A DNA stretch of 64,000 bases, taken from the IMG/VR virus record IMGVR_UViG_3300047272_000250, positions 40,394-104,393 of that record. One strand, 5' to 3'. The DNA comes from a virus (lineage: Duplodnaviria > Caudoviricetes). Below are positions 39,487 to 57,651 of this stretch, piece after piece (the stretch's first letter is position 1; each line of letters starts with the position of its first letter). The translations under genes and the position numbers were made by a program. Under the pieces are notes generated by a model. The model saw nothing but the letters and a program-made list of their open reading frames with translations. It was not told where the DNA came from and did not search any database.

Positions 39487-39737
39487 GGGATATATCGCTA
39501 TATGTTTGAAGAGCTTCAAGAAGCTCTTTGGCTATCCCGTCGAAATCAATAGTTCCGTTATTAAAGTATTTTCCAGATTGGATACACTTTTGTAGTGTAT
39601 TTGCAATGTATTTTTGTTTATCCATACATATCACCTCTAATACAGTATAACAAATAATCAGTATTAGTACAAATACTATATATGCCCTGTTTATTTATAT
39701 ATTATAGAAATGTTAATAAAATTTTAAATTTGACTAG

Positions 39738-39812
39738 TAGGGATACTTGGATTTGAACCAAGAGTAGATTGCATATAAGACAATTGCTTTAACCAGATTA
39801 AGCTATATCCCC
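39738..39812 (-). tRNA. tRNA-Ile(UAU)
   Basis: Cloverleaf GGGGATA/TATCCCT; anticodon arm ATTGT-CTTATAT-GCAAT; T arm CTTGG-TTCAAAT-CCAAG. Confidence 0.85.
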
Positions 39813-40125
39813 TCGAATTTAGAGAGTGTATATTACTAGCGAGTAATATATAGCTAATATAGAGATCATAGATATTATAAATTTATTCTTATTATTCATT
39901 GTCTTTATCTCTTTTCTAATACTGAACTTCCAGATTTTTTGCATACAAACCCTATACCCTTTTAAGAAAAAACTTAAAAGATCCCCGAAATTGTCAGGTT
40001 ATAAATCCGCAATTCATCGGTTGAACCATAGTGGCCATGTAGCTTATCTGAAAGTAACACTTCCGTCATTTAGCACTTGGAGTTTAAACCCTTGATATTA
40101 TCTCCTAAAACTGTCCAAGGTTAAA

Positions 40126-40155
40126 ATTGTAACAGCAAAGAATTTTCTATGTCAA
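40126..40155 (-). promoter_or_regulatory. Leftward housekeeping-sigma promoter
   Basis: TTGACA-N18-TACAAT with TGT immediately before the -10. Confidence 0.65.
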
Positions 40156-40223
40156 CCCCGCCTGGTCCAAATTCATAAAAATGTTAACAAATTTCGTTTT
40201 TGTATCATTCGTCTTTTTTAAAA

Positions 40224-40239
40224 TCGAACAGGCGTTCGA
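40224..40239. promoter_or_regulatory. LexA (SOS) box, actinobacterial type
   Basis: TCGAAC-AGGC-GTTCGA, a perfect consensus match. Confidence 0.75.
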
Positions 40240-40308
40240 ATAGCGAGCACAGATGTGGGCTAAATCACATAGATAAATGTCCGAATTGTCCGTGTTGGTG
40301 CTTGAATT

Positions 40309-40330
40309 TGTCAGTCCCCTGTGTTATAGT
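40309..40330 (+). promoter_or_regulatory. RecA-NDp/PafBC-type promoter 1
   Basis: TGTCAG-TCCCCTGTGT-TATAGT. Confidence 0.8.
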
Positions 40331-40377
40331 TCTACTATAAGAAATTAGCAAATAGCTAATAAAGAAAGGAATTCAAA

Positions 40378-40590
40378 ATGAATTCACTAAATACACTAAC
40401 AGTAGTAGTAGAACCTAGCCACTCAATGGCTTCATCTAACACTAAGAATAATAATATCTTCCGCCTTGCTAATGGTAACTACATTAGCCGTATGGCTTAT
40501 GTTTATATGGTAGCCTCTGAGAATATGGTTTCTCACCGCTACCTAACACCTAACGAAAGTCGTTGGGTATTCGCTAATCGTGTGGCGTAA
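40378..40590 (+). CDS. Hypothetical early protein
   Basis: GAAAGGA RBS downstream of promoter 1. Confidence 0.75.
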   Translation: MNSLNTLTVVVEPSHSMASSNTKNNNIFRLANGNYISRMAYVYMVASENMVSHRYLTPNESRWVFANRVA

Positions 40591-40669
40591 CTCACACGAT
40601 AATAACTTGACTTTATCCAATCTAATCAATTAAACTTATACCATAACAAAAAGAATAGGAAATAAATAA

Positions 40670-40837
40670 ATGACAATAACTTACTCAATCTGGCAGGGTT
40701 CCCGCCTTCTATCAATCGACAATATCGCTAACGATATTAAAGAAATTGACCACTTAATGAATTCGCTAAATGCTAGCGACTTAGGCAAGAAAGTTAAATT
40801 CTCTGCCAACGTTCAAGGAATTAAGGTAACTAAGTAA
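40670..40837 (+). CDS. Small hypothetical protein (55 aa)
   Basis: MTITYSIWQGSRLL...; TAGGA RBS; below the track length cut-off. Confidence 0.65.
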   Translation: MTITYSIWQGSRLLSIDNIANDIKEIDHLMNSLNASDLGKKVKFSANVQGIKVTK

Positions 40838-41005
40838 ATGGGTTACGTTGAATTCTTTCGCCTTGATACTGATGGGGCTGGCTGGGTAGATTTATCTAAT
40901 GCCCGCCCTAGCGAATTGCTTGACCTAGAAATAGGGCTTGAGTTAGAGGGTAGCCCTGTGCTACCATTAAACGGAACTTTATTCTCTACACCTGAGAATA
41001 ACTAG
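40838..41005 (+). CDS. Small hypothetical protein (55 aa)
   Basis: MGYVEFFRLDTDGAGWVDL...; abuts the previous stop. Confidence 0.6.
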   Translation: MGYVEFFRLDTDGAGWVDLSNARPSELLDLEIGLELEGSPVLPLNGTLFSTPENN

Positions 41006-41195
41006 AAGAATAGGAAATAAAATAAATGGAAATAACATTAGAACTATCTAAATGGGGCTTTGGTCTTTACTCTCCTTGGTTTGGTATTGACCTAACTTGG
41101 GGCTTTATTATCACCGCTGGAATTGTTACCCTCGCTGTTAAGTTTCTTAATAAGCGTGGTTTATATTTCTCTAATAAGTTTAGAAAGGTTAAGTA

Positions 41196-41381
41196 ATGAT
41201 GACACGCAAGGACTACGTTAAAACCGCCGCAATTCTAAAAACACATTTTGAAAATAACCCGCAACTTTCTCAAGAAGTCTTCGAGGATTTAGTTGATGAA
41301 TTTTCTTTAATGTTTGAAGAAGATAACGAAAGATTTGACTCTGATAAATTTTTAGAGGCTTGTCTTCCTGATTTAGAATAA
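41196..41381 (+). CDS. Hypothetical early protein
   Basis: MTRKDY...DNERFDSDKFLEAC; GAAAGG RBS. Confidence 0.75.
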   Translation: MMTRKDYVKTAAILKTHFENNPQLSQEVFEDLVDEFSLMFEEDNERFDSDKFLEACLPDLE

Positions 41382-41402
41382 AAAAAATAAATAAATAAAA
41401 TT

Positions 41403-41430
41403 GCTGCGACGATCTCGCAGCTTTTTTATT
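41403..41430 (+). terminator. Intrinsic terminator
   Basis: GCTGCGA-CGATC-TCGCAGC-TTTTTT. Confidence 0.75.
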
Positions 41431-41509
41431 TTATAAATAAAAAAATAAATAGTTGAAATTTCAACTAAAAGCGGGCCACCCCGCTGTCGGGCGTGTCTGT
41501 TAAGAAACT

Positions 41510-41518
41510 TGTGGATAA
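41510..41518 (-). promoter_or_regulatory. DnaA box
   Basis: TGTGGATAA, the reverse complement of TTATCCACA. Confidence 0.65.
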
Positions 41519-41530
41519 CCCCTGAAAAAA

Positions 41531-41546
41531 TGTGATGTGATTCACA
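41531..41546. promoter_or_regulatory. CRP-family site
   Basis: TGTGA-TGTGAT-TCACA. Confidence 0.7.
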
Positions 41547-41585
41547 TTTCAAAATGTCCGATTTGTGGCATTACTGGTCAGTAGA

Positions 41586-41607
41586 TGTCAGACCCCCCTG
41601 CTATACT
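41586..41607 (+). promoter_or_regulatory. RecA-NDp/PafBC-type promoter 2
   Basis: TGTCAG-ACCCCCCTGC-TATACT. Confidence 0.8.
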
Positions 41608-41656
41608 TCTAGGTATAGAAAGTTGAGAAAGGTTCTCAAACTAGAAAGGAATTCAA

Positions 41657-41839
41657 ATGAATTCAAATGTAATAATCGAAGTATGTAAAACACATACACC
41701 TAATAAGTCTGCTAAGTCATTCCATAATGACACATGCTACACATTCTGCGAAGTTTGTGAAAACAATATCGAATCATGGTACATGGACTATGATTCAGAC
41801 CGCTTAAGCGGTTGGTCTTCATGGAAGGTTTCTAACTAA
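41657..41839 (+). CDS. Small Cys/His hypothetical protein
   Basis: GAAAGGA RBS; CKTH, CEVC. Confidence 0.7.
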   Translation: MNSNVIIEVCKTHTPNKSAKSFHNDTCYTFCEVCENNIESWYMDYDSDRLSGWSSWKVSN

Positions 41840-42303
41840 TGAATAAATTAAAAAATCAGATAGATGAAAATGAATTCTATCAAATCGTTGATGAAATGTT
41901 CTATTGCTGTGATGAGTCACAGTTTAGACACTATTGCAAAAAGCATACCGAACTAATGGGTTGCTACTATTGCGAATTTGACTATACACAAGAATGTGAG
42001 TGTAAATAAATGAAAGATTTATTTTGTAAAGGTTGCGATGAATTCGTAATTGAAATGTCCGAAGAGGAATCAGAATTTATTTCCGTCCTCTGCTCTAATT
42101 GTTGGGAGATATAAAATGGAAAAAGATATTTTTGGTTTTGCAGATGCAATTCAATTAGACCATTTAACAAAAGAAGAGTTAGAAGAAATTGCAATCATGT
42201 TAGGAATTAAAGAATGAATTTTTATCAAACGTTTTTCGTAAGCGGTAATGCATTGTTTTGGTTTTCAATGATCAATTTATTTATTGGTTTTTATTTATTT
42301 GTA

Positions 42304-42341
42304 AAAGAATAAATATGCAGAGCTTTGCATAAAAATGCGGG
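42304..42341. promoter_or_regulatory. Tandem ARG (ArgR)-like boxes
   Basis: AAAGAATAAATATGCAGA-gc-TTTGCATAAAAATGCGGG. Confidence 0.55.
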
Positions 42342-42398
42342 GCACCACGCATTCGGGCGTGTTGCAATTAAGACACGCCGATAAAACCCCATAAAATT

Positions 42399-42447
42399 TG
42401 TGAGATCGAACACAGTGTGATGTAGAACACATGTGACCTACACCACA
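42399..42447. promoter_or_regulatory. Three tandem CRP-like sites
   Basis: TGTGA-N6-ACACA, TGTGA-N6-ACACA, TGTGA-N6-CCACA. Confidence 0.55.
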
Positions 42448-42480
42448 AAGTCCCAAATGTCCGATTTATACCCCTCAAAA

Positions 42481-42502
42481 TGTCAGACCCCTCTGCTAGA
42501 AT
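42481..42502 (+). promoter_or_regulatory. RecA-NDp/PafBC-type promoter 3
   Basis: TGTCAG-ACCCCTCTGC-TAGAAT. Confidence 0.8.
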
Positions 42503-42733
42503 ACTATGTATAAAGATTAAAAAAGAAAGGTGGTCAAAATGACTACATTAACAGAAACTCTATTCAGCACTATCGTGCATGACTTTCACAATGGGGGAGT
42601 AAAATCCTCTTATGGGCTAGATGCCTACACACGCAAGGAAATCCTTGCTTATCTCTTACGCTCTAAAGGCTGTAATTGTATAAAATGTCTGTGATGTAAA
42701 TCACCCCGACACTTTGGGGAAAATCCCCCAAAA

Positions 42734-42755
42734 TGTCAGACCCCCATGCTAGAAT
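42734..42755 (+). promoter_or_regulatory. RecA-NDp/PafBC-type promoter 4
   Basis: TGTCAG-ACCCCCATGC-TAGAAT. Confidence 0.8.
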
Positions 42756-42787
42756 TGCTACCATAAACAAAAAGAAAGAAGGACAAA

Positions 42788-42991
42788 ATGTCAGCAAATG
42801 TTTATTCAGTTGAAAGCCTCTTAGTAGGTCAGGAATACTTTTCTAAGAGTGTTCGTGGAAAAATCGTAAGTGCAGAAAAGCACCCCCATGCAGTATGGTA
42901 TGAAGGTTGCGAAAGTTACCTTGTTGAAATCCGCCCGCAGTATGGAATTAAAAATACATACCGCACAATTGCCGTTAAGACTTCTAACTAA
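42788..42991 (+). CDS. Small beta-rich hypothetical protein
   Basis: GAAGGA RBS downstream of promoter 4. Confidence 0.75.
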   Translation: MSANVYSVESLLVGQEYFSKSVRGKIVSAEKHPHAVWYEGCESYLVEIRPQYGIKNTYRTIAVKTSN

Positions 42992-43601
42992 GAAAAGAGA
43001 AAAAATGATAAACGCAACAATTACAACTTACTCAGGCGATAAGAAAGTTATCCCTTTTCAAAATCGTGAAGCCGTTCAGAAATTCATTCAAGAATTACCT
43101 AAGCGACTTTCTAAAAACACTTCCGTATTCTTTGAGTGCGATATCTTTTCAATTTCAGGAACAATCAGAGGAGAAAAATAAATGGGACAATTAAAAGAAA
43201 TTATTGCCGTTGCTTGTGATGAGTGCGGTGGTGCAGGATTTTTATTTTGGGGCGATGAAAATAACTATGATGTAGAAACTTGTAATTGCGAATTTGATGA
43301 AACGGAGTTAATTTAATGTTGATGACTAATGGAGATTTACTAGCAATTATTATTGCGCTACTAGGTTTAACTGTTGCACTTGCTTATCAGTTTATTTTTA
43401 TCCGCCGACTAACGGAAGAAAATGAAATGCTATGGGAAAAACTAACTGATTTAATTAAAGAAAAAAATAAATAAATGGAAATTTTATTTTTAATCGGGAT
43501 GATCGTCGGCGCTGCATTTTTTATTCTTGCAGCTGTCGGTGATATCTTTTTTTAGTTGAACTTTCAACTAATTTAGACACGCCCGAGCGAGGCAGGCCGC
43601 C

Positions 43602-43622
43602 TGTGGATAACTCTGTGGATTA
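43602..43622 (-). promoter_or_regulatory. DnaA box pair
   Basis: TGTGGATAA-ctc-TGTGGATTA. Confidence 0.65.
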
Positions 43623-43629
43623 AGTACGA

Positions 43630-43645
43630 TGTGATTTTTCTCACA
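43630..43645. promoter_or_regulatory. CRP-family site
   Basis: TGTGA-TTTTTC-TCACA. Confidence 0.7.
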
Positions 43646-43682
43646 AAATTATTTACGACTTACCGACGGGTAGCCTAAAAAA

Positions 43683-43704
43683 TGTCAGTAAAGTCTGATA
43701 GACT
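43683..43704 (+). promoter_or_regulatory. RecA-NDp/PafBC-type promoter 5
   Basis: TGTCAG-TAAAGTCTGA-TAGACT. Confidence 0.8.
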
Positions 43705-43797
43705 TGTATTATTCACAACACGAAAGGGAAACTATGAACCTCGATGAATTCAAGGCACACGTTATCGCACAACGTGAAGCAAGCAAGGCAGAAGCCT

Positions 43798-43819
43798 TGT
43801 CAGTCCTATCCACTACAAT
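43798..43819 (+). promoter_or_regulatory. RecA-NDp/PafBC-type promoter 6
   Basis: TGTCAG-TCCTATCCAC-TACAAT. Confidence 0.75.
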
Positions 43820-43846
43820 TAAAGAAAAGAAAGAAGGTAAATAATA

Positions 43847-44062
43847 ATGGACTATCTCTACTCAGTTACTTGCACTTATGACGGAGACCGCTCACCACAT
43901 TGGGTTGGTCGCTATGACAACGCTATCGACGCAGTTAATTCTTGGAATAAGTTTGTTGATTGGGGTATGGCTAACGAATACTCTACAATAAATTTCTCAG
44001 AGCCTAATGGCAAAATGCACACAAAGATTTTTTATCGTAATGGAAATGTAGGTGGTAAGTAA
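43847..44062 (+). CDS. Hypothetical early protein
   Basis: GAAGG RBS; translationally coupled chain. Confidence 0.75.
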   Translation: MDYLYSVTCTYDGDRSPHWVGRYDNAIDAVNSWNKFVDWGMANEYSTINFSEPNGKMHTKIFYRNGNVGGK

Positions 44063-44268
44063 TGGTAGAACTAAAGCACTCGCTTAATTTTGTAAGCGAA
44101 ATAGATGAAACCTCTCGACTAGGTAAAATGCTAATTAGCCTGCCTGCGGATAAGCAAAAGGCTATGCTCGAAGATGCGTTAAAGGATGCAATTCTTCCTA
44201 CGCTACTTCCTGAACTTGAAAGAATTAACGAAGGTGCCTCATGGGCAATACTAAAGGTGGTTAAATAA
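44062..44268 (+). CDS. Hypothetical early protein
   Basis: TAATG coupling. Confidence 0.7.
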   Translation: MVELKHSLNFVSEIDETSRLGKMLISLPADKQKAMLEDALKDAILPTLLPELERINEGASWAILKVVK

Positions 44269-44543
44269 TGGGAAGCAATATGGCATATGACCTAGCAAGC
44301 GATGAACTAGGATTAGATTTGGAAGTGGCTATTGCTATGCACTTGCAGTCTAATCACTACCCGCCCGTTCCTACTTCGATGGTAGAACCTTGCATCGAAG
44401 CAATTGACGCATACTATGAAGAGGACTACAACAGAGCAATTCCTATGCCTGAAGGCGTATTCTATAAGGGAATGAAAACTGCACCAGCCTCAGCAATAAT
44501 CGAGCAACACCACTTATCAGCGTGGCTACCAGAGGAGTATTAA
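44268..44543 (+). CDS. Hypothetical early protein
   Basis: TAATG coupling; HLQSNHYPPVP, HHL.AWL. Confidence 0.75.
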   Translation: MGSNMAYDLASDELGLDLEVAIAMHLQSNHYPPVPTSMVEPCIEAIDAYYEEDYNRAIPMPEGVFYKGMKTAPASAIIEQHHLSAWLPEEY

Positions 44544-44691
44544 AATGGAAAACGAAAAAGTAAAACGTGTGCAGGAGTTGCGTCGCAGTAATGCTGCGAC
44601 TGCAATTCCGTCTAAGAAAAAATATAAAAGAAAAACTAAAAATAAAAAAGAAAAAATATTGCAATACTACAGCGATCTAGTATCACCATTC

Positions 44692-44729
44692 TTTAAATAA
44701 ATATGCAAAGCTCTGCATAAATATGCGGG
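44692..44729. promoter_or_regulatory. Tandem ARG (ArgR)-like boxes
   Basis: TTTAAATAAATATGCAAA-gc-TCTGCATAAATATGCGGG. Confidence 0.55.
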
Positions 44730-44765
44730 GCACCCCGCAGTCGGGCGTGTCTCTATTAAGGACAC

Positions 44766-44781
44766 TGTGATTTTTCTCACA
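44766..44781. promoter_or_regulatory. CRP-family site
   Basis: TGTGA-TTTTTC-TCACA. Confidence 0.7.
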
Positions 44782-44808
44782 AAATTTAGGGCGGATCTGA
44801 TTTGGAAA

Positions 44809-44830
44809 TGTCAGTCTAATTTGATAGTAT
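44809..44830 (+). promoter_or_regulatory. RecA-NDp/PafBC-type promoter 7
   Basis: TGTCAG-TCTAATTTGA-TAGTAT. Confidence 0.8.
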
Positions 44831-44858
44831 TAATATACCCGTTAAGAAAGGTCAACTC

Positions 44859-45581
44859 ATGACAAAATTAAAACGCTCTAATGATAGAAAGGTGGCTAAC
44901 CTTGTCACAAAAAACGGAAAGCAAGCAGCAATCGCTAACACATTCGGCCTACCTGCTGGAAAGAATTTCTCGTGCCCTGGTGCCACTAGTATTTGTGAAA
45001 GCGTATGCTACGCAGGCAAGCTTGAAAAGTTATTCAAGGGAGTAAAAACTAATCTCCTGCACAATTGGGACCTATTGAAGAATGCGGACCTGCAGGAAAT
45101 GTATACTCTTCTCTCAGAAATGGTTGCAGAATTTAAAGCTGAATGCGTTAAGAAAGACGCACCTATGCTATTCCGTATCCACTGGGACGGAGATTTCTTT
45201 AATGAAGACTACACACGTGCATGGCGCCTAGTAATTGAAGAACAGCCAGACATTCAATTTTGGGTTTACACTCGTGTAAAGTCTGCAGCACTCATCCTTA
45301 AGGATATCGAAAACTTATCTCTATATTATTCAACCGATGATGAGAATCTTCCAATTGCGACGGACCTAAAGCAAAACAGTGGTGTACGTCTTGCATACCT
45401 AGGTAAGACTTTCGCATTAACAGAAACTAAGATGAAAGAAATTACAGGAAAAGTTGGTGCACGGTGCCCTGAAAATAATAAATCAATTCCATTAATTTCT
45501 AGCAATGGGTCCGCATGCGTTTCTTGTGGTCTCTGCGTATACGGTAAGGCTGACATTAGATTTTCTGCAACGAAAAAATAA
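44859..45581 (+). CDS. GP88-like Fe-S/radical-SAM-related protein
   Basis: SCPGATSICESVCYA, FRIHWDGDFF, FWVYTR, C-terminal CP...CVSCGLC. Confidence 0.7.
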   Translation: MTKLKRSNDRKVANLVTKNGKQAAIANTFGLPAGKNFSCPGATSICESVCYAGKLEKLFKGVKTNLLHNWDLLKNADLQEMYTLLSEMVAEFKAECVKKDAPMLFRIHWDGDFFNEDYTRAWRLVIEEQPDIQFWVYTRVKSAALILKDIENLSLYYSTDDENLPIATDLKQNSGVRLAYLGKTFALTETKMKEITGKVGARCPENNKSIPLISSNGSACVSCGLCVYGKADIRFSATKK

Positions 45582-45737
45582 AATGATATATCTGATCATA
45601 CTTACTACGGTGGGAGTACTTGCCACTCCCGCCGTAGTTATCTCTTTACTTTATAATTCTGTAAATAAAAATTATAAAAAAGATTTTTAAAAGATGCGGC
45701 CCAGCTCGCTACTGGTGAGTATGTCAAATTACGGGCG

Positions 45738-45753
45738 TGTGATTTTTCTCACA
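45738..45753. promoter_or_regulatory. CRP-family site
   Basis: TGTGA-TTTTTC-TCACA. Confidence 0.7.
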
Positions 45754-45812
45754 CGATTTTACGGGGACAATTCGGACATTTTAACCATAATTAGGTATGT
45801 TCGATTAGTAAT

Positions 45813-45834
45813 TGTCAGTCAGGTCGTGTAGAAT
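45813..45834 (+). promoter_or_regulatory. RecA-NDp/PafBC-type promoter 8
   Basis: TGTCAG-TCAGGTCGTG-TAGAAT. Confidence 0.8.
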
Positions 45835-45864
45835 TATATTATCAAACAAACGAAAGGAAGCACA

Positions 45865-46014
45865 ATGACAACAACTCCAAAAATCGGGGAAACCTTCACA
45901 ACTGCTAAGTCTGGTGTATCAGGCAAGGTTGAGGAAGTAGTCAAGAACGCAAATGGCTCTTTGCGTGTTCGCCTCAATGTTGAGGGAACAGAACGCTGGA
46001 CAACAATCAAGTAA
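45865..46014 (+). CDS. 49-aa SH3/KOW-like protein
   Basis: MTTTPKIGETFTTAKSGVSGKVEEV...; GAAAGGA RBS; paralog of 46575-46757. Confidence 0.75.
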   Translation: MTTTPKIGETFTTAKSGVSGKVEEVVKNANGSLRVRLNVEGTERWTTIK

Positions 46015-46036
46015 GAAGGTTGGGGCTACTGGTAAA

Positions 46037-46058
46037 TGTCAGTAGCCCCTGCTACACT
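46037..46058 (+). promoter_or_regulatory. RecA-NDp/PafBC-type promoter 9
   Basis: TGTCAG-TAGCCCCTGC-TACACT. Confidence 0.8.
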
Positions 46059-46095
46059 TAAATATAACAACCCAAATAGAAAAGGAATAAATGCT

Positions 46096-46497
46096 ATGGC
46101 AAGAGCAATCTCAGTAAAGGTGGCAACACCAAAGGTAATCAAGGCTTTGGAAGCAAAGTTGGCAGATAGCAAGAGCGCAATCACCAACAATGAAAAGAAG
46201 CGTAAGGAATACGAGAAAACAGAAAAGGCTTGGGCTAAGGAAGTTGCAGACCTAGTATTCAAGCACATCTCAAAGGCAGAAGTTTCTGCACATGAGAACT
46301 ATCGTAATGAACTCAATGTAAATCTCACACTTCCAGCAGGAACAATCAAGTTGCCTGAGAAGCCTTCTATCGAACTTGAAAATGAACTTGGTCGCTATGA
46401 AGTTCAGGAAATCGAGAACGCAATTCGTATTCTCAAAATGACAGATGAGGACACAGTTAATGCCTCAACTTTCAAGTCAATCGCACAATATCTATAA
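46096..46497 (+). CDS. Hypothetical coiled-coil early protein (start MARAISVK)
   Basis: AAAGGA RBS before 46096; the track start lies inside the promoter. Confidence 0.75.
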   Translation: MARAISVKVATPKVIKALEAKLADSKSAITNNEKKRKEYEKTEKAWAKEVADLVFKHISKAEVSAHENYRNELNVNLTLPAGTIKLPEKPSIELENELGRYEVQEIENAIRILKMTDEDTVNASTFKSIAQYL

Positions 46498-46574
46498 TTC
46501 CCAATAGGGAACTCAACCTGAGCAAGTTGGAAAACTGCTCAACCAACCCACATAAAGAAAAGGAAAATAAATAA

Positions 46575-46757
46575 ATGGCACCAATTACAAATACAACAAC
46601 AGGTCGTTTCTATAAGAAGGGCGACACTTTCACAACAGGTAAGTCAGGAATTACTGGCGCAATCACAGAAATTATTTCTGTCCGTCCTAATCTAACTAAG
46701 TTAGGTTTGCAAACAGAAAATGGTTTGCGTTGGGCTATGGTAAAAATCGGCGCATAA
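46575..46757 (+). CDS. Small SH3/KOW-like protein
   Basis: GDTFTTGKSGITGAITEI; paralog of 45865-46014. Confidence 0.75.
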   Translation: MAPITNTTTGRFYKKGDTFTTGKSGITGAITEIISVRPNLTKLGLQTENGLRWAMVKIGA

Positions 46758-46760
46758 CTT

Positions 46761-46849
46761 TCATCGGGGGATGAATAACTACACGCAACACTAAGTGTAG
46801 TTGGGAGTCTAGGTTACCTTTCTTTCCTAGGCTCCCGCAAACCCGATGA
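46761..46849 (+). ncRNA. Candidate three-way-junction RNA with anti-Shine-Dalgarno loop
   Basis: Three stems of 8, 8 and 11 bp; loop TTACCTTTCTTT. Confidence 0.55.
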
Positions 46850-46856
46850 TCGTAGC

Positions 46857-46877
46857 TTATCCACAAAGTTATCCACA
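46857..46877 (+). promoter_or_regulatory. DnaA box pair
   Basis: TTATCCACA-aag-TTATCCACA. Confidence 0.72.
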
Positions 46878-46953
46878 GGCGCCCTGGGTCGCAAATTCGG
46901 ACATTTACGACATTAAGGAAAAATGCCTGAGATTGCCAGAATAATTAGACAGA

Positions 46954-46975
46954 TGTCACCCCAGTCTGCTAGACT
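46954..46975 (+). promoter_or_regulatory. RecA-NDp/PafBC-type promoter 10
   Basis: TGTCAC-CCCAGTCTGC-TAGACT. Confidence 0.75.
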
Positions 46976-47005
46976 TAATATATCAACCTAACGAAAGAAG
47001 GAATC

Positions 47006-48019
47006 ATGGCTCACAACCTAGAAGAACAAAATGGTCAAGTTGCTTTTGCATTACGTGGAAAGCCTGCTTGGCACAATCTCGCTAACAAAATTTTCGGCGA
47101 CGAAGAAATTGTTACAACACAGTCAATGCTTTCAGAAGCAAAACTTTCTAATTGGAATGTCCGCTTAGAAGCAATGGCAGACCACACGCCTGAATCTTAT
47201 CGTGATTCATCTGGCGCTCAATTAGTTCTTCGCACAAATCCATTTGACAATGGCACTGACGTGCTTTCTGTTGTCGGTTCTCGATACAAGGTAGTGCAGA
47301 ATGAAGAATTGTTTGCGTTTGCAGATAACATTCTTGACGGCGACGAATCTTGCAAGTGGGAATCTGCGGGTTCTCTAAAGAAGGGCAAAGTTGTATTCGG
47401 CTCTCTTACAGTTCCCCGCACAATGGTTCTTGACCCACAAGGTGCTAACGATGAGACAAAACTCTATCTAATCGTTTGGACATCACACGATGGTTCTGTT
47501 GCTGTTCAGGCTGCGATTACACCTGTTCGTGTAGTTTGCCAAAACACCCTTAACCTTGCAATGCGTAATGCAAAGCAATCTTTCAAGATTCGCCACACAC
47601 AGACAGCAGAAGGCAAAATTGTTGCTGCTCGTGAGGCTCTTGGTTTGACTTTCGCTTATGCTGATGAGTTTGAGAAGGAAATGCAAGCCCTTTTCAATGC
47701 GAAGATTACTGACAAGAAGTTTTCGCAAATCATCAACACACTTTACCCAAAGCCTGAGAAGGATTCTAAGGGTTCTCTAAAGAAGTGGGAGAACAAGGTT
47801 GTTCTCATTGACGAGTTGTATCACAACTCACCAACTAACGCTAACATCAAGGGCACAGCGTGGGGTGCGCTTAACGCTATGACTGAGCGCCTTGATTACT
47901 ATCGCACAGCCCGCACAGGTAATGGCGAATCTCTTATGTCTTCTGCTTCTGGTTTTGACCCAGTAATTACAGCAGAAAAAAATAAGTTAGCAAAACAAAT
48001 CTTGGCTCTGGCTAAGTAA
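47006..48019 (+). CDS. DUF932-family protein
   Basis: MAHNLE..PAWH, YKVVQNEELF, SHDGS, TPVRVVCQNTL, GTAWGALNAMTE. Confidence 0.85.
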   Translation: MAHNLEEQNGQVAFALRGKPAWHNLANKIFGDEEIVTTQSMLSEAKLSNWNVRLEAMADHTPESYRDSSGAQLVLRTNPFDNGTDVLSVVGSRYKVVQNEELFAFADNILDGDESCKWESAGSLKKGKVVFGSLTVPRTMVLDPQGANDETKLYLIVWTSHDGSVAVQAAITPVRVVCQNTLNLAMRNAKQSFKIRHTQTAEGKIVAAREALGLTFAYADEFEKEMQALFNAKITDKKFSQIINTLYPKPEKDSKGSLKKWENKVVLIDELYHNSPTNANIKGTAWGALNAMTERLDYYRTARTGNGESLMSSASGFDPVITAEKNKLAKQILALAK

Positions 48020-48025
48020 TAGGAG

Positions 48026-48050
48026 AGGGGGGCGAAAGCCCCCCTTTTTT
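48026..48050 (+). terminator. Intrinsic terminator
   Basis: AGGGGGGC-GAAA-GCCCCCCT-TTTTT. Confidence 0.85.
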
Positions 48051-48100
48051 ATTTGATCATTTTTTGATTTGACAAATCCAGCTTGATCGGGATGGGTCGC

Positions 48101-48116
48101 TGTGATTTTTCTCACA
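48101..48116. promoter_or_regulatory. CRP-family site
   Basis: TGTGA-TTTTTC-TCACA. Confidence 0.7.
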
Positions 48117-48153
48117 TTAAGTACGATAAGAAAAATCCCCCAGGATTTGTGGA

Positions 48154-48175
48154 TGTCAGTCGTTTTTGCTATAGT
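48154..48175 (+). promoter_or_regulatory. RecA-NDp/PafBC-type promoter 11 (leaderless whiB)
   Basis: TGTCAG-TCGTTTTTGC-TATAGT-N6-ATG. Confidence 0.8.
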
Positions 48176-48181
48176 TAATGT

Positions 48182-48397
48182 ATGACAGAAGAAAACCATT
48201 GGCAGTTTAAAGTAGCATGTGCTCCACAGGATTTTGATTTATTCTTTAGCAACGCAAAAGGTAAGCGGGCTCAGGCATTAGCCATATGTGGTAAATGCCC
48301 AGTCTCAAATGAATGTTTAAACCATGCGATAGAGAATAATGTAGAGCACGGGATATTCGGAGGAAAGACACCTGAACAGAGAAGGAAGATGAAATGA
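48182..48397 (+). CDS. whiB: WhiB-family transcription factor
   Basis: W...AC...FF...ICGKCPV..EC..A...GIFGG.T..QR. Confidence 0.92.
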   Translation: MTEENHWQFKVACAPQDFDLFFSNAKGKRAQALAICGKCPVSNECLNHAIENNVEHGIFGGKTPEQRRKMK

Positions 48398-50052: not shown

Positions 50053-50175
50053 ATGACAAAGCGTGAATATCTAGTATCTCTTGGACAAACTGTTGGTAAG
50101 CGAGGACGTTTCTCTAAGGAGCAAGTAGAACTTCTGAAGCAAGCAGAAGCCAAAGGTCAATCCTTTACAAAGTAA
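50053..50175 (+). CDS. Mini Lsr2-like protein (DNA-binding domain only, 40 aa)
   Basis: MTKREYLVSLGQTVGKRGRFSKEQVELL; GGAGG RBS; hairpin downstream. Confidence 0.7.
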   Translation: MTKREYLVSLGQTVGKRGRFSKEQVELLKQAEAKGQSFTK

Positions 50176-51009: not shown

Positions 51010-51665
51010 AAAACAAATCATGGACAAAGTACACCTTTGCCTGTGATCCTGAAGAATGTGATACTTTAATTGAAGTAACATGTGATGACTATGGATTCCC
51101 ACTAGGTGTGATGCAAATCACATGTCCGTGTGGGCGCAAGCTTGACATCTTGTCAGTGGCCAATGCTACAATTGAATCAACTACTACAGAAGGAAACCAT
51201 ATGGAAACAACATCAACAATCGGCTCAGATGCATTGCACTCACCTGCAGTGGAGTACAACCCTAATCAATTAGTTACATATAAGGTCCTAAGTGGATACT
51301 CAGACCCTGAGTATAAAACGGACAAGGTAACATCCCTGGAATGGGACCTGCACAACGGACGTCAGTCACAAAAGCGTGTGGGCCTACTAGAATCAAACAT
51401 TAATTCAGTTAAAGAAATCATTACTGAATCATATGCTGAGTCAGAAGACCAAGAAACTTTGCGTTCAATCGCAGAGGCTTTGGGCATTGAACTAACCCGT
51501 ACAATCGAATGGAGCGCTACAATTGAGGTTAGCGGTACCATGGAAGTAGACCTCCTAGAGGACGTCGACATCGAGCAGGAAATCTATGACAATCTTTACG
51601 TAGATTCTCAGAATGGCAATATCGAAATCGGGGACACCGAAGTTTGTAACGCACACGAGTGCTAA
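51006..51665 (+). CDS. Hypothetical protein, with probable internal in-frame start at 51201
   Basis: GGAGG RBS before 51006; promoter 13 and GAAGGA RBS before 51201. Confidence 0.65.
   Translation: MKNKSWTKYTFACDPEECDTLIEVTCDDYGFPLGVMQITCPCGRKLDILSVANATIESTTTEGNHMETTSTIGSDALHSPAVEYNPNQLVTYKVLSGYSDPEYKTDKVTSLEWDLHNGRQSQKRVGLLESNINSVKEIITESYAESEDQETLRSIAEALGIELTRTIEWSATIEVSGTMEVDLLEDVDIEQEIYDNLYVDSQNGNIEIGDTEVCNAHEC
51151..51172 (+). promoter_or_regulatory. RecA-NDp/PafBC-type promoter 13 (inside a CDS)
   Basis: TGTCAG-TGGCCAATGC-TACAAT. Confidence 0.78.
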
Positions 51666-52669: not shown

Positions 52670-52914
52670 TTAAATAGACAACCCTTATCCCTGGACCTTC
52701 TGCCAGGGATAGGCGGGGTGAATCGCAAATAAAAATTACCCATTACGACGATGATCATAAATTCCCAGAATTTCCTTGACATTCATTATAGCTATAGGTA
52801 TAATCCATAGATCTATGTCGCAATATATCTAATTAGACATTACGACGAATGCAATAAATTCCCAGAATTTCTGGATAATTGCATAATGTCTACAAGGTTA
52901 TGTAGACTTATATA

Positions 52915-53058
52915 TTATCCTTTCTTCTGTGTTCTATTAACTCTCTTTACAGGAATAGACTTCTTATTCTTTCCCGCCTTCTGATCTCTTTTAAATTTAC
53001 TATTCTGAGCTGGCCCACGGCCAGCGGCGGAATCAGAAGTAACTACATTATTACTCAT
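52915..53058 (-). CDS. Small basic protein (47 aa)
   Basis: GGAGG RBS; MSNNVVTSDSAAGRGPAQNSKFKRDQKAGKNKK... Confidence 0.55.
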   Translation of the reverse strand: MSNNVVTSDSAAGRGPAQNSKFKRDQKAGKNKKSIPVKRVNRTQKKG

Positions 53059-53221
53059 ATATAAACCTCCCTATATACATAGTATATAACACTTGTAGAA
53101 ATATATCCATATTTTGTACATATTTAGATCAATATTAATATAAATATACATTATTATGATAGATTTATCTAACTTTATGATCAATTTTGTACCAATTTTG
53201 CCCTATTTTTATAGGGTTTTA

Positions 53222-53260
53222 TAGCCAAATATATCTCATATATTGAGATATATTTGGCTA
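53222..53260. repeat. Perfect 17-bp inverted repeat
   Basis: TAGCCAAATATATCTCA-TATAT-TGAGATATATTTGGCTA. Confidence 0.9.
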
Positions 53261-53996
53261 ATTATTGACAAGATCGATATGTCCATTATGTCCGATATGA
53301 GATATATCATCATATGAGATTATATGGAAAAGTATTGACATTACGATCCCTTTATGATAGGCGTTCAAATACCCATATATAATAACTATATACAACTAAT
53401 ACTGAATATATCATAATGTGCCCTGTATATGGGAATATTCACCACTTTACTCCACTATACTCCACATAGCCTAAAAAGCCTTACAAGGCTGATACAAGGC
53501 AGAAAAGGGAGGGGATAAGGAACTTTCCCTTGAAGCTATATCCTTGGCCTTAAAAGGCCTTATTGATAGCCGTAAGCTAAATCCTCTATATGATCAATAA
53601 AGGCATTACGTCTTATAATTAATATATATGTTATATGTAGTATATCTACTCTATAGATAAGGGCTATCTTCGATCTTCCCGCCCGAAATTTAAATTTATG
53701 TCTCGTATTCAGATCGAGCTTACGAATTGTTATTCGGCGATATCCGTATTTCATTGAGTGCACCATATTGAGTAGTCGCTCATAGTCTGGTGATTATCCC
53801 AGTAATCGATATTATTTTTAGATATCCCGCATTTTTGGCAAGTTTCCCATGTGTCATGGATTGGGGTCTCACTTTTCGGCTTCACTTAGTCGCTCCTTAT
53901 AAGGTGTTATAGGGTATATATTTAATTGATCTTAAGGTGTTATAAGACCTTATTCCCATTCTATATTATTAATAGATAGCCAGTCAAGATAATAAA

Positions 53997-56972: not shown

Positions 56973-57651
56973 AGACCACGCTATATGTGTAAGGAAACTT
57001 ATCTTTTGTTAGCGCCTTTACTGCTTCTGCGTATTCTCTTATCTCGTACTGAGCATCTGATGGCAGTCTTTGACCTAAGAAGTTTAGGATACCGTGTAGT
57101 GATACAGTCCATCTCCATCTTACATACATTCCATATGCTGGAAGGAATAGTCTAGCCTGCTCTGGTGCTATACCAGCTTCCATAGCCTTATCGTATAGTC
57201 CTTTACCCATCTCAGTAATGTCAAACAGTTTATTTGTAAACCACCCGCCAACTTCAGATTCTAGCGGTATACCAGAACCCTGCTTAGAGTTCTCTGGCTT
57301 TGATCGCCATTCTGTGCCCTTTGGTAAATAAAATTCTTCGTTCTCTGTTATGTATCTACGGGATGATTCATTCCACCCGTTCTGATCGTCTAGGTGTGTT
57401 GAGCCAACTGCATGCTTCCACCATTGACGTGCTACAAATAGTGGTGCATATACCTCAAATGTAATTGCTGCGTGTCTGAATGGAGAAGTATGTTCTTCAT
57501 TCCATAAGAACTTAATTAACTTAGCATCTCGCTCTGACATCTCTGCAGACTCTTTATCGTATGATACACGAGCAGCGTTAGCTATGGAAAGATCATTTCC
57601 AAGCGTGTCTACAAGTCTGACATAGCCCTTATCTAAAACATCTATCTTCAT
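56950..57651 (-). CDS. thyX: Flavin-dependent thymidylate synthase
   Basis: AARVSY, HTSPF, NESSRRY, EQARLFLP, AQYEIR. Confidence 0.93.
   Translation of the reverse strand: MKIDVLDKGYVRLVDTLGNDLSIANAARVSYDKESAEMSERDAKLIKFLWNEEHTSPFRHAAITFEVYAPLFVARQWWKHAVGSTHLDDQNGWNESSRRYITENEEFYLPKGTEWRSKPENSKQGSGIPLESEVGGWFTNKLFDITEMGKGLYDKAMEAGIAPEQARLFLPAYGMYVRWRWTVSLHGILNFLGQRLPSDAQYEIREYAEAVKALTKDKFPYTYSVVFEEENNG

Follow-up and report, generated by a model that had tools for sequence, protein, structure and literature searches.

Why does a phage place so many look-alikes of host regulatory sites in front of its smallest genes? The question is raised by a 64,000-nt window from a virus of the Caudoviricetes (bases 40,394-104,393 of the complete 104,393-bp IMG/VR virus record IMGVR_UViG_3300047272_000250, ~40% G+C). 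Nearly every gene runs on the minus strand, apart from those of a plus-strand block at ~40.3-52.7 kb with ~39 mostly tiny open reading frames (ORFs). A first-pass annotation had singled out eight spacers in this block, all of which are non-coding gaps separating small plus-strand ORFs, as shuffled mosaics of sites for host transcription factors, forming either a sensor panel or a decoy array. We consider it probable that these spacers are the control regions of one regulated family of early promoters, in which a CRP-type box acts as a class-I-type activator site. On that view the dense set of look-alike host sites calls for no decoy: an elaborate but otherwise ordinary promoter architecture would explain it.

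We compared motif counts with those in 100 genomes simulated for the 104,393-bp phage under a Markov-1 model. The strongest repeat was TGTCAG-N7-TGnTAnnnT, with 13 matches against 1.55 expected. Twelve of these lie on the plus strand between 40309 and 52092, and the sole match elsewhere in the genome is on the minus strand, at window position 57518; overall, the window holds 12-15 copies. We then scanned IMG/VR with the DUF932 protein encoded in the block, which returned 217 related stretches, and kept 80 loci (73-98% identity). The promoter is present in all 80 (554 copies, all plus strand). Across these loci and the window together, the spacing is N7 in 564 copies, against a single copy in total at the other spacings from N3 to N12, and all of these matches but one are on the plus strand.

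TGnTAnnnT is a predicted extended -10, and the start site is predicted 7 nt past it, that is, 28 bp past the first T of TGTCAG. By this count TGTCAG occupies approximately -28 to -23, too near the -10 for a normal -35, and the -35 position itself has almost no information content. The first ATG follows 7-8 nt past the -10 in 21 family promoters and 21-40 nt past it in most others; a leaderless arrangement is predicted for the WhiB gene (ATG 48182) and for a 72-residue ORF (ATG 52099), each beginning 7 nt past the -10. Leaderless transcripts are common in Actinobacteria. Because canonical TTGACA-17/18-TAnnnT promoters coexist in the same phage, for example at 52776-52804 (plus strand) and 40155-40126 (minus strand), the TGTCAG type appears to be a separate class. 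The minus-strand example is near consensus, TTGACA-18-TACAAT with a TG.

Three other readings of the element were considered and rejected. TGTCAG as the -35 of a downstream -10 finds no -10 at 17 bp, promoter 7 excepted; a sigma-54-like reading has its spacing off by one and meets a conserved TAnnnT; and a minus-strand promoter composed of CTGACA and the TGTCCGA word would have a poor -10. The nearest parallel is found in T4 middle promoters, which combine a MotA box at -30 with a sigma-70 -10. There, as here, an element ~10-12 bp upstream of the -10 replaces the -35; unlike there, even the earliest promoters here have the element, at an absolutely fixed spacing. The C-terminal domain of MotA (MotCF) had no match in the phage, in a search that had no positive control, and AsiA was not searched for. 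We also note two short IMG/VR contigs, L177 and L150, that have no detectable protein homology to the phage and carry TTGCAA-a-TGTCAGG-N6-TGTTAnnnT (in L177 at 1075, 1521 and 2852, minus strand). In these, TGTCAG comes directly after a -35 at 17-bp spacing, and a conserved tgatttatcaag follows. Since they carry it, the TGTCAG element may be used beyond one phage lineage, a hint that it is not private to this one.

The second component is a CRP-type box. TGTGA-N6-TCACA, with at most one mismatch, has 14 sites in the genome against 4.3 expected; 11 lie within 40.2-48.2 kb and one at 51107, and 12 of the 14 fall in plus-block spacers. The exact 16-mer TGTGATTTTTCTCACA occurs four times, against 0 expected. 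All 80 related loci have CRP-type boxes (718 sites), and the 385 unique sites give the logo TGTGAt..a.ATCACA, with half-sites conserved around many different centres. Within 100 nt upstream, 235 of 433 unique promoters (54%) have such a box, and in the family the box starts 34, 44, 54, 64 or 74 bp before TGTCAG. For the statistics of this phasing, unique sites were first collapsed to 148 sequence clusters. Of these, 118 fall at 3-5 mod 10 (R = 0.66-0.68, period 10-10.5 bp), giving a Rayleigh p of ~1e-29.

Counted from the sequence-inferred start site, the predicted box centres are -54.5, -64.5, -74.5, -84.5 and -94.5. Class-I CRP sites are centred at -61.5, -71.5, -81.5 and -91.5, and whiB1 of M. 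tuberculosis is activated by the actinobacterial CRP from -58.5 (PMC2844151). Class-I activation by CRP is marked by sites that keep to one helix face, a helical turn apart; the CRP-type box resembles this in its phasing, with predicted centres ~3 bp off the E. coli positions. What the two have in common is a 16-bp TGTGA-N6-TCACA of variable centre, spaced upstream by whole turns, as at whiB1 (PMC2844151); the phage promoters differ in the inferred centres and in having TGTCAG and no -35. A further box (40581-40596), with one mismatch, is found at the stop codon that ends the first ORF. Downstream of it is a canonical-looking TTGACT-18-TAAACT promoter (40607-40636), relative to which the box is again centred at approximately -54.5.

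Other words accompany this box. Four of the six perfect genome copies of the DnaA-type box, TTATCCACA, are in spacers, and perfect copies occur in 76 of the 80 related loci (309 sites). The flanks of the box are conserved too (GGGGGGTTATCCACAGC, ...ACCCCTGAAA), so a reader other than DnaA is possible. GACACGCCCGA has four sites and AAATGTCCGAWTT five, all in spacers and each against 0.24 expected; in the relatives they are found in 65 of 80 loci (151 sites) and 52 of 80 loci (65 sites), respectively. An unbiased 8-mer comparison of 700 unique promoter-upstream windows with 5,679 background chunks re-found the words and added CCCTGAAA, directly after the DnaA-type box, as well as GCCCGCAA and CTTACGAC. 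Because the words are kept family-wide, they appear to be selected elements and not leftovers of one duplication. The recurrence of words noted in the first-pass annotation is thus genuine: they fall only in spacers, in numbers far exceeding chance, and at least 80 related contigs retain them. Its LexA box also held up. A perfect TCGAAC-N4-GTTCGA occurs once, against 0.07 expected, and is kept in the orthologous first spacer of two relatives (L005/L006) with both arms retained and the centre changed. The near edge of this box is ~70 bp from the -35 hexamer of the divergent promoter at 40155-40126. The box sits between that promoter and promoter 1, ~85 bp away from the core of each, not in the classical operator position at a core promoter.

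Two of the proposed host words did not fare as well. The ARG-box pattern TGCAT-N4-ATGCA (at most two mismatches) has 58 sites genome-wide against 76 expected, that is, no enrichment, and the two stretches that had been called ARG boxes belong to one duplicated 65-nt block, which also contains a GC hairpin and the GACACGCC word and whose palindrome is present in just one of 80 relatives. TACT-N4-AGTA, taken for a division signal, has 7 sites genome-wide against 2.8 expected, two of them in the region, and is not convincingly enriched. The idea of a sensor panel thus survives in one part, the CRP-type box that is helically phased like a class-I site, and is lost for the ArgR and TACT-N4-AGTA regulons.

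CGGACA, the core of the TGTCCGA word, is ~5-fold enriched both in the spacers of this phage and in those of the terminal repeat of Jay2Jay, a Streptomyces phage of cluster BE1. Because the word is common to phages of very different hosts, it may serve a phage-lineage or pan-actinobacterial factor, not a host-specific regulon. GACAC is ~4-fold enriched in window spacers; the conserved word, GACACGCC(CGA), is 8-11 nt long and exceeds the WhiA motif. That motif, GACAC, is found upstream of the -35 on either strand, and WhiA acts together with WhiB (PMC10243135). Co-activation of the promoters by WhiA and WhiB, in a phage that encodes a WhiB, would be only a lead.

We asked how freely these words are arranged. 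They had been described as the same words in different order and orientation. Orientation does vary (for GACACGCC, the DnaA-type box and the TGTCCGA word), as does membership, whereas the order in the window is constant wherever words co-occur: a LexA box or GACACGCC, with a terminator or palindrome upstream of GACACGCC, then the DnaA-type box, CCCTGAAA, the CRP-type box, the TGTCCGA word and the promoter. Across the family, the CRP-type box has the DnaA-type box on its upstream side in 92 cases against 6, and GCCCGCAA on that side in 73 against 0. Other pairs are free (GACACGCC versus CRP, 80:55; CRP versus TGTCCGA, 25:29), each word having preferred distances. The words thus follow a grammar, and "shuffled mosaic" overstates the case.

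The orthologous DUF932 promoter, compared across 81 genomes, illustrates both aspects. DnaA pair, CRP box and promoter keep their order, but individual modules have been inverted, lost or exchanged: the two DnaA boxes stand in tandem or converge, and the CRP box is missing in approximately one-third of the genomes, the window among them, which has the TGTCCGA word instead. The arrangement of these putative modules is module turnover inside a grammar, not shuffling. Nor are the spacers wholly independent of one another, as had been stated. Some are partial copies (repeat families D7, D15 and I1), among them the 65-nt block and a 44-nt block including 46857..46877 that is an inverted copy of 43587-43630.

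Which proteins might read these words? In the complete phage genome we found no cyclic nucleotide (cNMP)-binding domain, Crp-type helix-turn-helix (HTH), DnaA C-terminal domain or sigma region 2, and among the early ORFs no other DNA-binding family was found. The phage's only HTH-like signal is a weak, sub-threshold Sigma70_r4-like HTH in a 62-residue frame (G000:C1:10123-10212, minus strand; E = 3.5e-4, 17 bits), outside the window at locus L204 and far from the block. With no homologue of CRP, DnaA or sigma in the phage, a factor from the host is plausible. We infer that the simplest reader of the CRP-type boxes is a host CRP-family protein, and of the TTATCCACA boxes host DnaA; the GACACGCC(CGA) and AATGTCCGA words may be read by a host or a phage factor.

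Each small-gene cassette starts at a rigid, predicted TGTCAG-N7-extended -10 promoter, and some end at a terminator. Upstream of the promoter stand short modular words, putatively protein-binding, in an order that varies little. In the model we favor, a dimer of the CRP family, most likely from the host, would sit on one helix face at approximately -54.5 to -94.5 and aid RNA polymerase, and so the CRP-type box would tie early (host-takeover) transcription to the cAMP or energy state of the host. Additional host or phage inputs, for which there is less support, could act through the DnaA-type boxes, the lone LexA box and the words GACACGCC and TGTCCGA. As a side effect, the shared words and promoters would offer short homologies at which relatives exchange cassettes.

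Several observations weigh against this model. The phased centres are ~3 bp off the E. coli class-I positions, and the 46% of promoters that have no CRP-type box indicate that the box is not obligatory. Four window boxes have the identical 16-mer, partly reflecting recent copying. No reader is known for TGTCAG at -28 to -23, which could need a phage factor. The CGGACA word is shared with Streptomyces BE1 phages, which have no CRP-type boxes, and may serve a phage-encoded factor. Finally, a host CRP of matching specificity, and TTATCCACA as the host DnaA box, are presumed from likeness to consensus. A more sweeping version strikes us as speculative and on balance doubtful: that a widespread freshwater actinophage family wires its whole takeover block to the state of the host, with a non-canonical TGTCAG promoter and, in combinations that differ by promoter, predicted class-I CRP, DnaA and LexA sites, TGTCAG being read by an unnamed actinobacterial or phage factor. 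If it were true, each early cassette would respond, ahead of phage commitment, to its own combination of signals for energy, replication and damage.

Among the alternatives, the one that survives best, itself unlikely, holds that the words are operators for phage regulators (small early proteins, WhiB, the Lsr2-like protein or others) that time an early-to-middle switch, host transcription factors being uninvolved. The enrichment of CGGACA in Jay2Jay repeat spacers, despite the very different hosts, speaks for such operators, as does the rigid TGTCAG at the position of the T4 MotA box, which hints at an accessory factor. So do the presence in the early block of WhiB together with ~35 small ORFs without assigned function, and the GACAC motif of WhiA, which works with WhiB (PMC10243135). 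However, the same promoter and words already serve the very first cassettes and WhiB itself, which would require the factor to be injected with the DNA. The early block also has no HTH, sigma or CRP-like domain, only the sigma-r4-like HTH noted above being found elsewhere, and the CRP-type box fits the canonical CRP consensus, flanking T and A included.

Alternatively, the main role of the words could be evolutionary, as recombination joints that shuffle cassettes, with regulation left to an ordinary promoter. The block is indeed hyperplastic: DUF932 is present in 80 of 80 relatives and Gp88 in ~51, many cassettes are present in 0-5, and gene order differs from relative to relative. Cassettes are flanked by composite spacers of terminators or GC hairpins and promoters, and there is a precedent in the PeSL cassettes of T4-type phages (PMC2839356, PMC4122927). 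We nonetheless rate recombination as the main role to be improbable, because it leaves unexplained the 10-bp phasing, the variable centres between conserved half-sites and the re-centred LexA box; as a secondary effect it is compatible with the activator-site model rather than opposed to it.

We give very little credence to the proposal that the sites are a sponge, which would titrate host regulators such as CRP, DnaA and LexA or cover the DNA as it enters. Several consensus-like host sites do occur together in DNA that probably enters early and is probably terminally repeated, by analogy with BE1 (PMC5764925), and their number would multiply with replication. But all sites fall in the ~110 bp ahead of promoters, with helical phasing, and a sponge needs neither; a genome copy provides just ~12 CRP-type and 5 DnaA-type boxes; and a CRP-type box at 54% of family promoters indicates per-promoter logic. 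The same facts, sites only just upstream of promoters, phased and numbering about a dozen per genome, tell against the proposed camouflage and stalled injection. That the spacers are decayed copies of one duplicated spacer with functionless words can be dismissed: the 65-nt block at 88% identity, the inverted 44-nt block and the fourfold 16-mer do attest copying, but the words persist in relatives whose anchor protein is 73-80% identical and whose surroundings have diverged, 385 distinct CRP-type sites have different centres, and the words show positional, phasing and order preferences.

The general kinds of element here are known: early cassettes with promoter and terminator, and phage promoters dependent on a regulator of the host. 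What is unusual is the absolutely rigid, predicted TGTCAG-N7-extended -10 promoter and the helical phasing of the putative CRP-type boxes. Like PeSL cassettes (PMC2839356, PMC4122927), those of this block are small ORFs of unassigned function flanked by a hairpin terminator and an early promoter, and they are gained, lost and reordered between relatives; unlike in PeSL cassettes, the composite adds CRP-type, DnaA-type, GACACGCC and TGTCCGA words with a positional grammar, and its -35/-10 is non-standard. Cyanophage NtcA promoters likewise place multiple sites for a host CRP-family global regulator (here putative) before phage genes, and have been read as exploiting the host nutrient-status signal (PMC3037559). 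The NtcA sites are GTA-N8-TAC, overlap the -35 and are scattered, whereas those described here are CRP-type, lie upstream in a class-I-like arrangement and cluster in a single early block.

Stoperators of Cluster A mycobacteriophages are a single word, bound by the repressor of a temperate phage, and occur genome-wide. In both cases short asymmetric words are repeated in actinophage intergenic regions and oriented with transcription; here, by contrast, several words go with a single class of promoter within one block, and neither a repressor nor an integrase was seen.

The closest counterpart of the block as a whole is in the cluster BE1 phages of Streptomyces, the nearest cultured relatives by DUF932 (55% identity). 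The BE1 homologue of this gene lies inside an ~11-kb direct terminal repeat (PMC5764925), and the Jay2Jay repeat contains, in matching order, an ORF of similar size, an Lsr2-like gene and the homologue of DUF932. On the basis of the DUF932 homology and this gene order, the block appears to be the counterpart of T5/SPO1/BE1-type early blocks. Such repeat regions, in BE1 (Jay2Jay), T5 and SPO1, similarly span ~11-13 kb with 20-40 tiny same-strand genes and nearly one promoter per cassette (PMC5764925). The BE1 block and this one have in common a DUF932 gene, an Lsr2-like gene and CGGACA enrichment in spacers. BE1 spacers differ in having TTGTAt-17-TAGACT promoters, no TGTCAG, no CRP-type boxes and DnaA-type boxes at no more than chance; moreover, the BE1 block is a physical terminal repeat, whereas the assembly here is circular, a terminal repeat being presumed by analogy.

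Freshwater low-GC Actinobacteria are among the most abundant bacteria of lakes, and to our knowledge essentially nothing is known of how their phages are regulated. The family described here is common, as the 217 related stretches in IMG/VR indicate, and its several hundred natural variants of one promoter design constitute a data set on how a phage may couple its early transcription to host cAMP-CRP and on what reads TGTCAG. The fixed order, 10-bp phasing and module turnover yield directly testable predictions. Coordinates of the individual features are collected in Table 1.

Table 1. Predicted promoters, words and genes of the plus-strand block (window positions).
Feature	Position	Strand	Remarks
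LexA box TCGAACAGGCGTTCGA, perfect, actinobacterial-type	40224..40239	.	85 bp before TGTCAG of promoter 1
CRP-type box	40254..40269	.	55 bp before promoter 1
AAATGTCCGAWTT word	40275..40287	+	also 41552 (+), 42455 (+), 45769 (-), 46894 (-)
Promoter 1 (TGTCAG-N7-TGTTATAGT)	40309..40330	+	motif match
Intrinsic terminator closing cassette 1	41403..41421	+	others 45604-45638, 48018-48053
Palindrome TAGTTGAA-N2-TTCAACTA, 2 copies	41450..41467 and 43553-43570	.	
GACACGCCCGA word	41487..41497	-	also 42353 (-, 1 mismatch), 42372 (+, 8-mer only), 43576 (+), 44741 (-)
DnaA-type box TTATCCACA	41510..41518	-	
CRP-type box	41531..41546	.	55 bp before promoter 2
Promoter 2	41586..41607	+	motif match
65-nt block, duplicated at 88% identity	42308..42372 and 44696-44760	+ (first copy)	
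Three tandem CRP-type boxes	42399..42447 (42399, 42416, 42432)	.	
Promoter 3	42481..42502	+	motif match
CRP-type box, 1 mismatch	42690..42705	.	44 bp before promoter 4
Promoter 4	42734..42755	+	motif match; short spacer absent from the first-pass list
Two tandem DnaA-type boxes, second with 1 mismatch	43602..43622	-	
CRP-type box TGTGATTTTTCTCACA	43630..43645	.	53 bp before promoter 5
Promoter 5	43683..43704	+	motif match
CRP-type box TGTGATTTTTCTCACA	44766..44781	.	43 bp before promoter 6
Promoter 6	44809..44830	+	motif match; ahead of Gp88-family gene
Gp88-family protein gene (PF17338)	44859-45581	+	family match
CRP-type box TGTGATTTTTCTCACA	45738..45753	.	75 bp before promoter 7
Promoter 7, variant	45813..45834	+	TG directly abutting TAGAAT
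Promoter 8	46037..46058	+	without upstream words
Two tandem perfect DnaA-type boxes	46857..46877	+	within 44-nt block
Promoter 9, TGTCAC variant	46954..46975	+	ahead of DUF932 gene
DUF932 protein gene	47006-48019	+	family match
CRP-type box TGTGATTTTTCTCACA	48101..48116	.	53 bp before promoter 10
Promoter 10	48154..48175	+	ahead of WhiB gene (leaderless)
WhiB-like protein gene	48182-48397	+	family match
Further same-family promoters	48899, 51151, 52071; weak variant 49833	+	
CRP-type box	51107..51122	.	44 bp before promoter at 51151

The source is an uncultured freshwater actinobacterial phage, distantly related to the Streptomyces BE1 phages; its WhiB, Gp88 and DUF932 genes mark it as actinobacterial. 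Megablast against cultured phages returned no close relative. A homologue search with WhiB returned just two near-identical metagenome proteins, tblastn of WhiB against cultured phages failed to retrieve the Planktophila phage isolates, and no relative emerged from two scans of genome contigs, one queried by the phage WhiB alone and the other by a small alignment of WhiB proteins. An Rfam scan of 38-58 kb gave tRNAs only, and a k-mer search for a late-promoter motif ahead of minus-strand genes gave nothing clear.

Within the early block, one small ORF matches DUF7455. A 40-residue ORF (50053-50175) matches the Lsr2-like family phrog_6269 over its first 39 residues only (E ~1e-6), and this Lsr2 N-terminus is possibly a stand-alone dimerisation domain or part of a split gene. 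Two small ORFs on either side of a 133-residue ORF between Gp88 and DUF932 (45865-46014 and 46575-46757) are paralogous, with 36% identity over 44 residues and the motif G-x-TFTT-x-KSG. CxxC pairs are abundant in several tiny early ORFs (41657-42009, 43182-43316), which by eye look like zinc ribbons and have no family match.

Two regions border the block. Upstream, 39635-40199 is a 565-bp divergent control region with a minus-strand tRNA-Ile(TAT) at 39737-39812. At the convergence of the plus and minus gene blocks, 52700-53560 is ~850 bp of AT-rich non-coding DNA (G+C 0.33), which might represent an end of the genome, an origin or a locus for a small RNA. The canonical promoter at 52776-52804 in this stretch is a perfect TTGACA-17-TATAAT with no ORF downstream, and a direct repeat of ~35 nt (cattacgacga..aataaattcccagaatttc) stands at ~52742 and ~52838.

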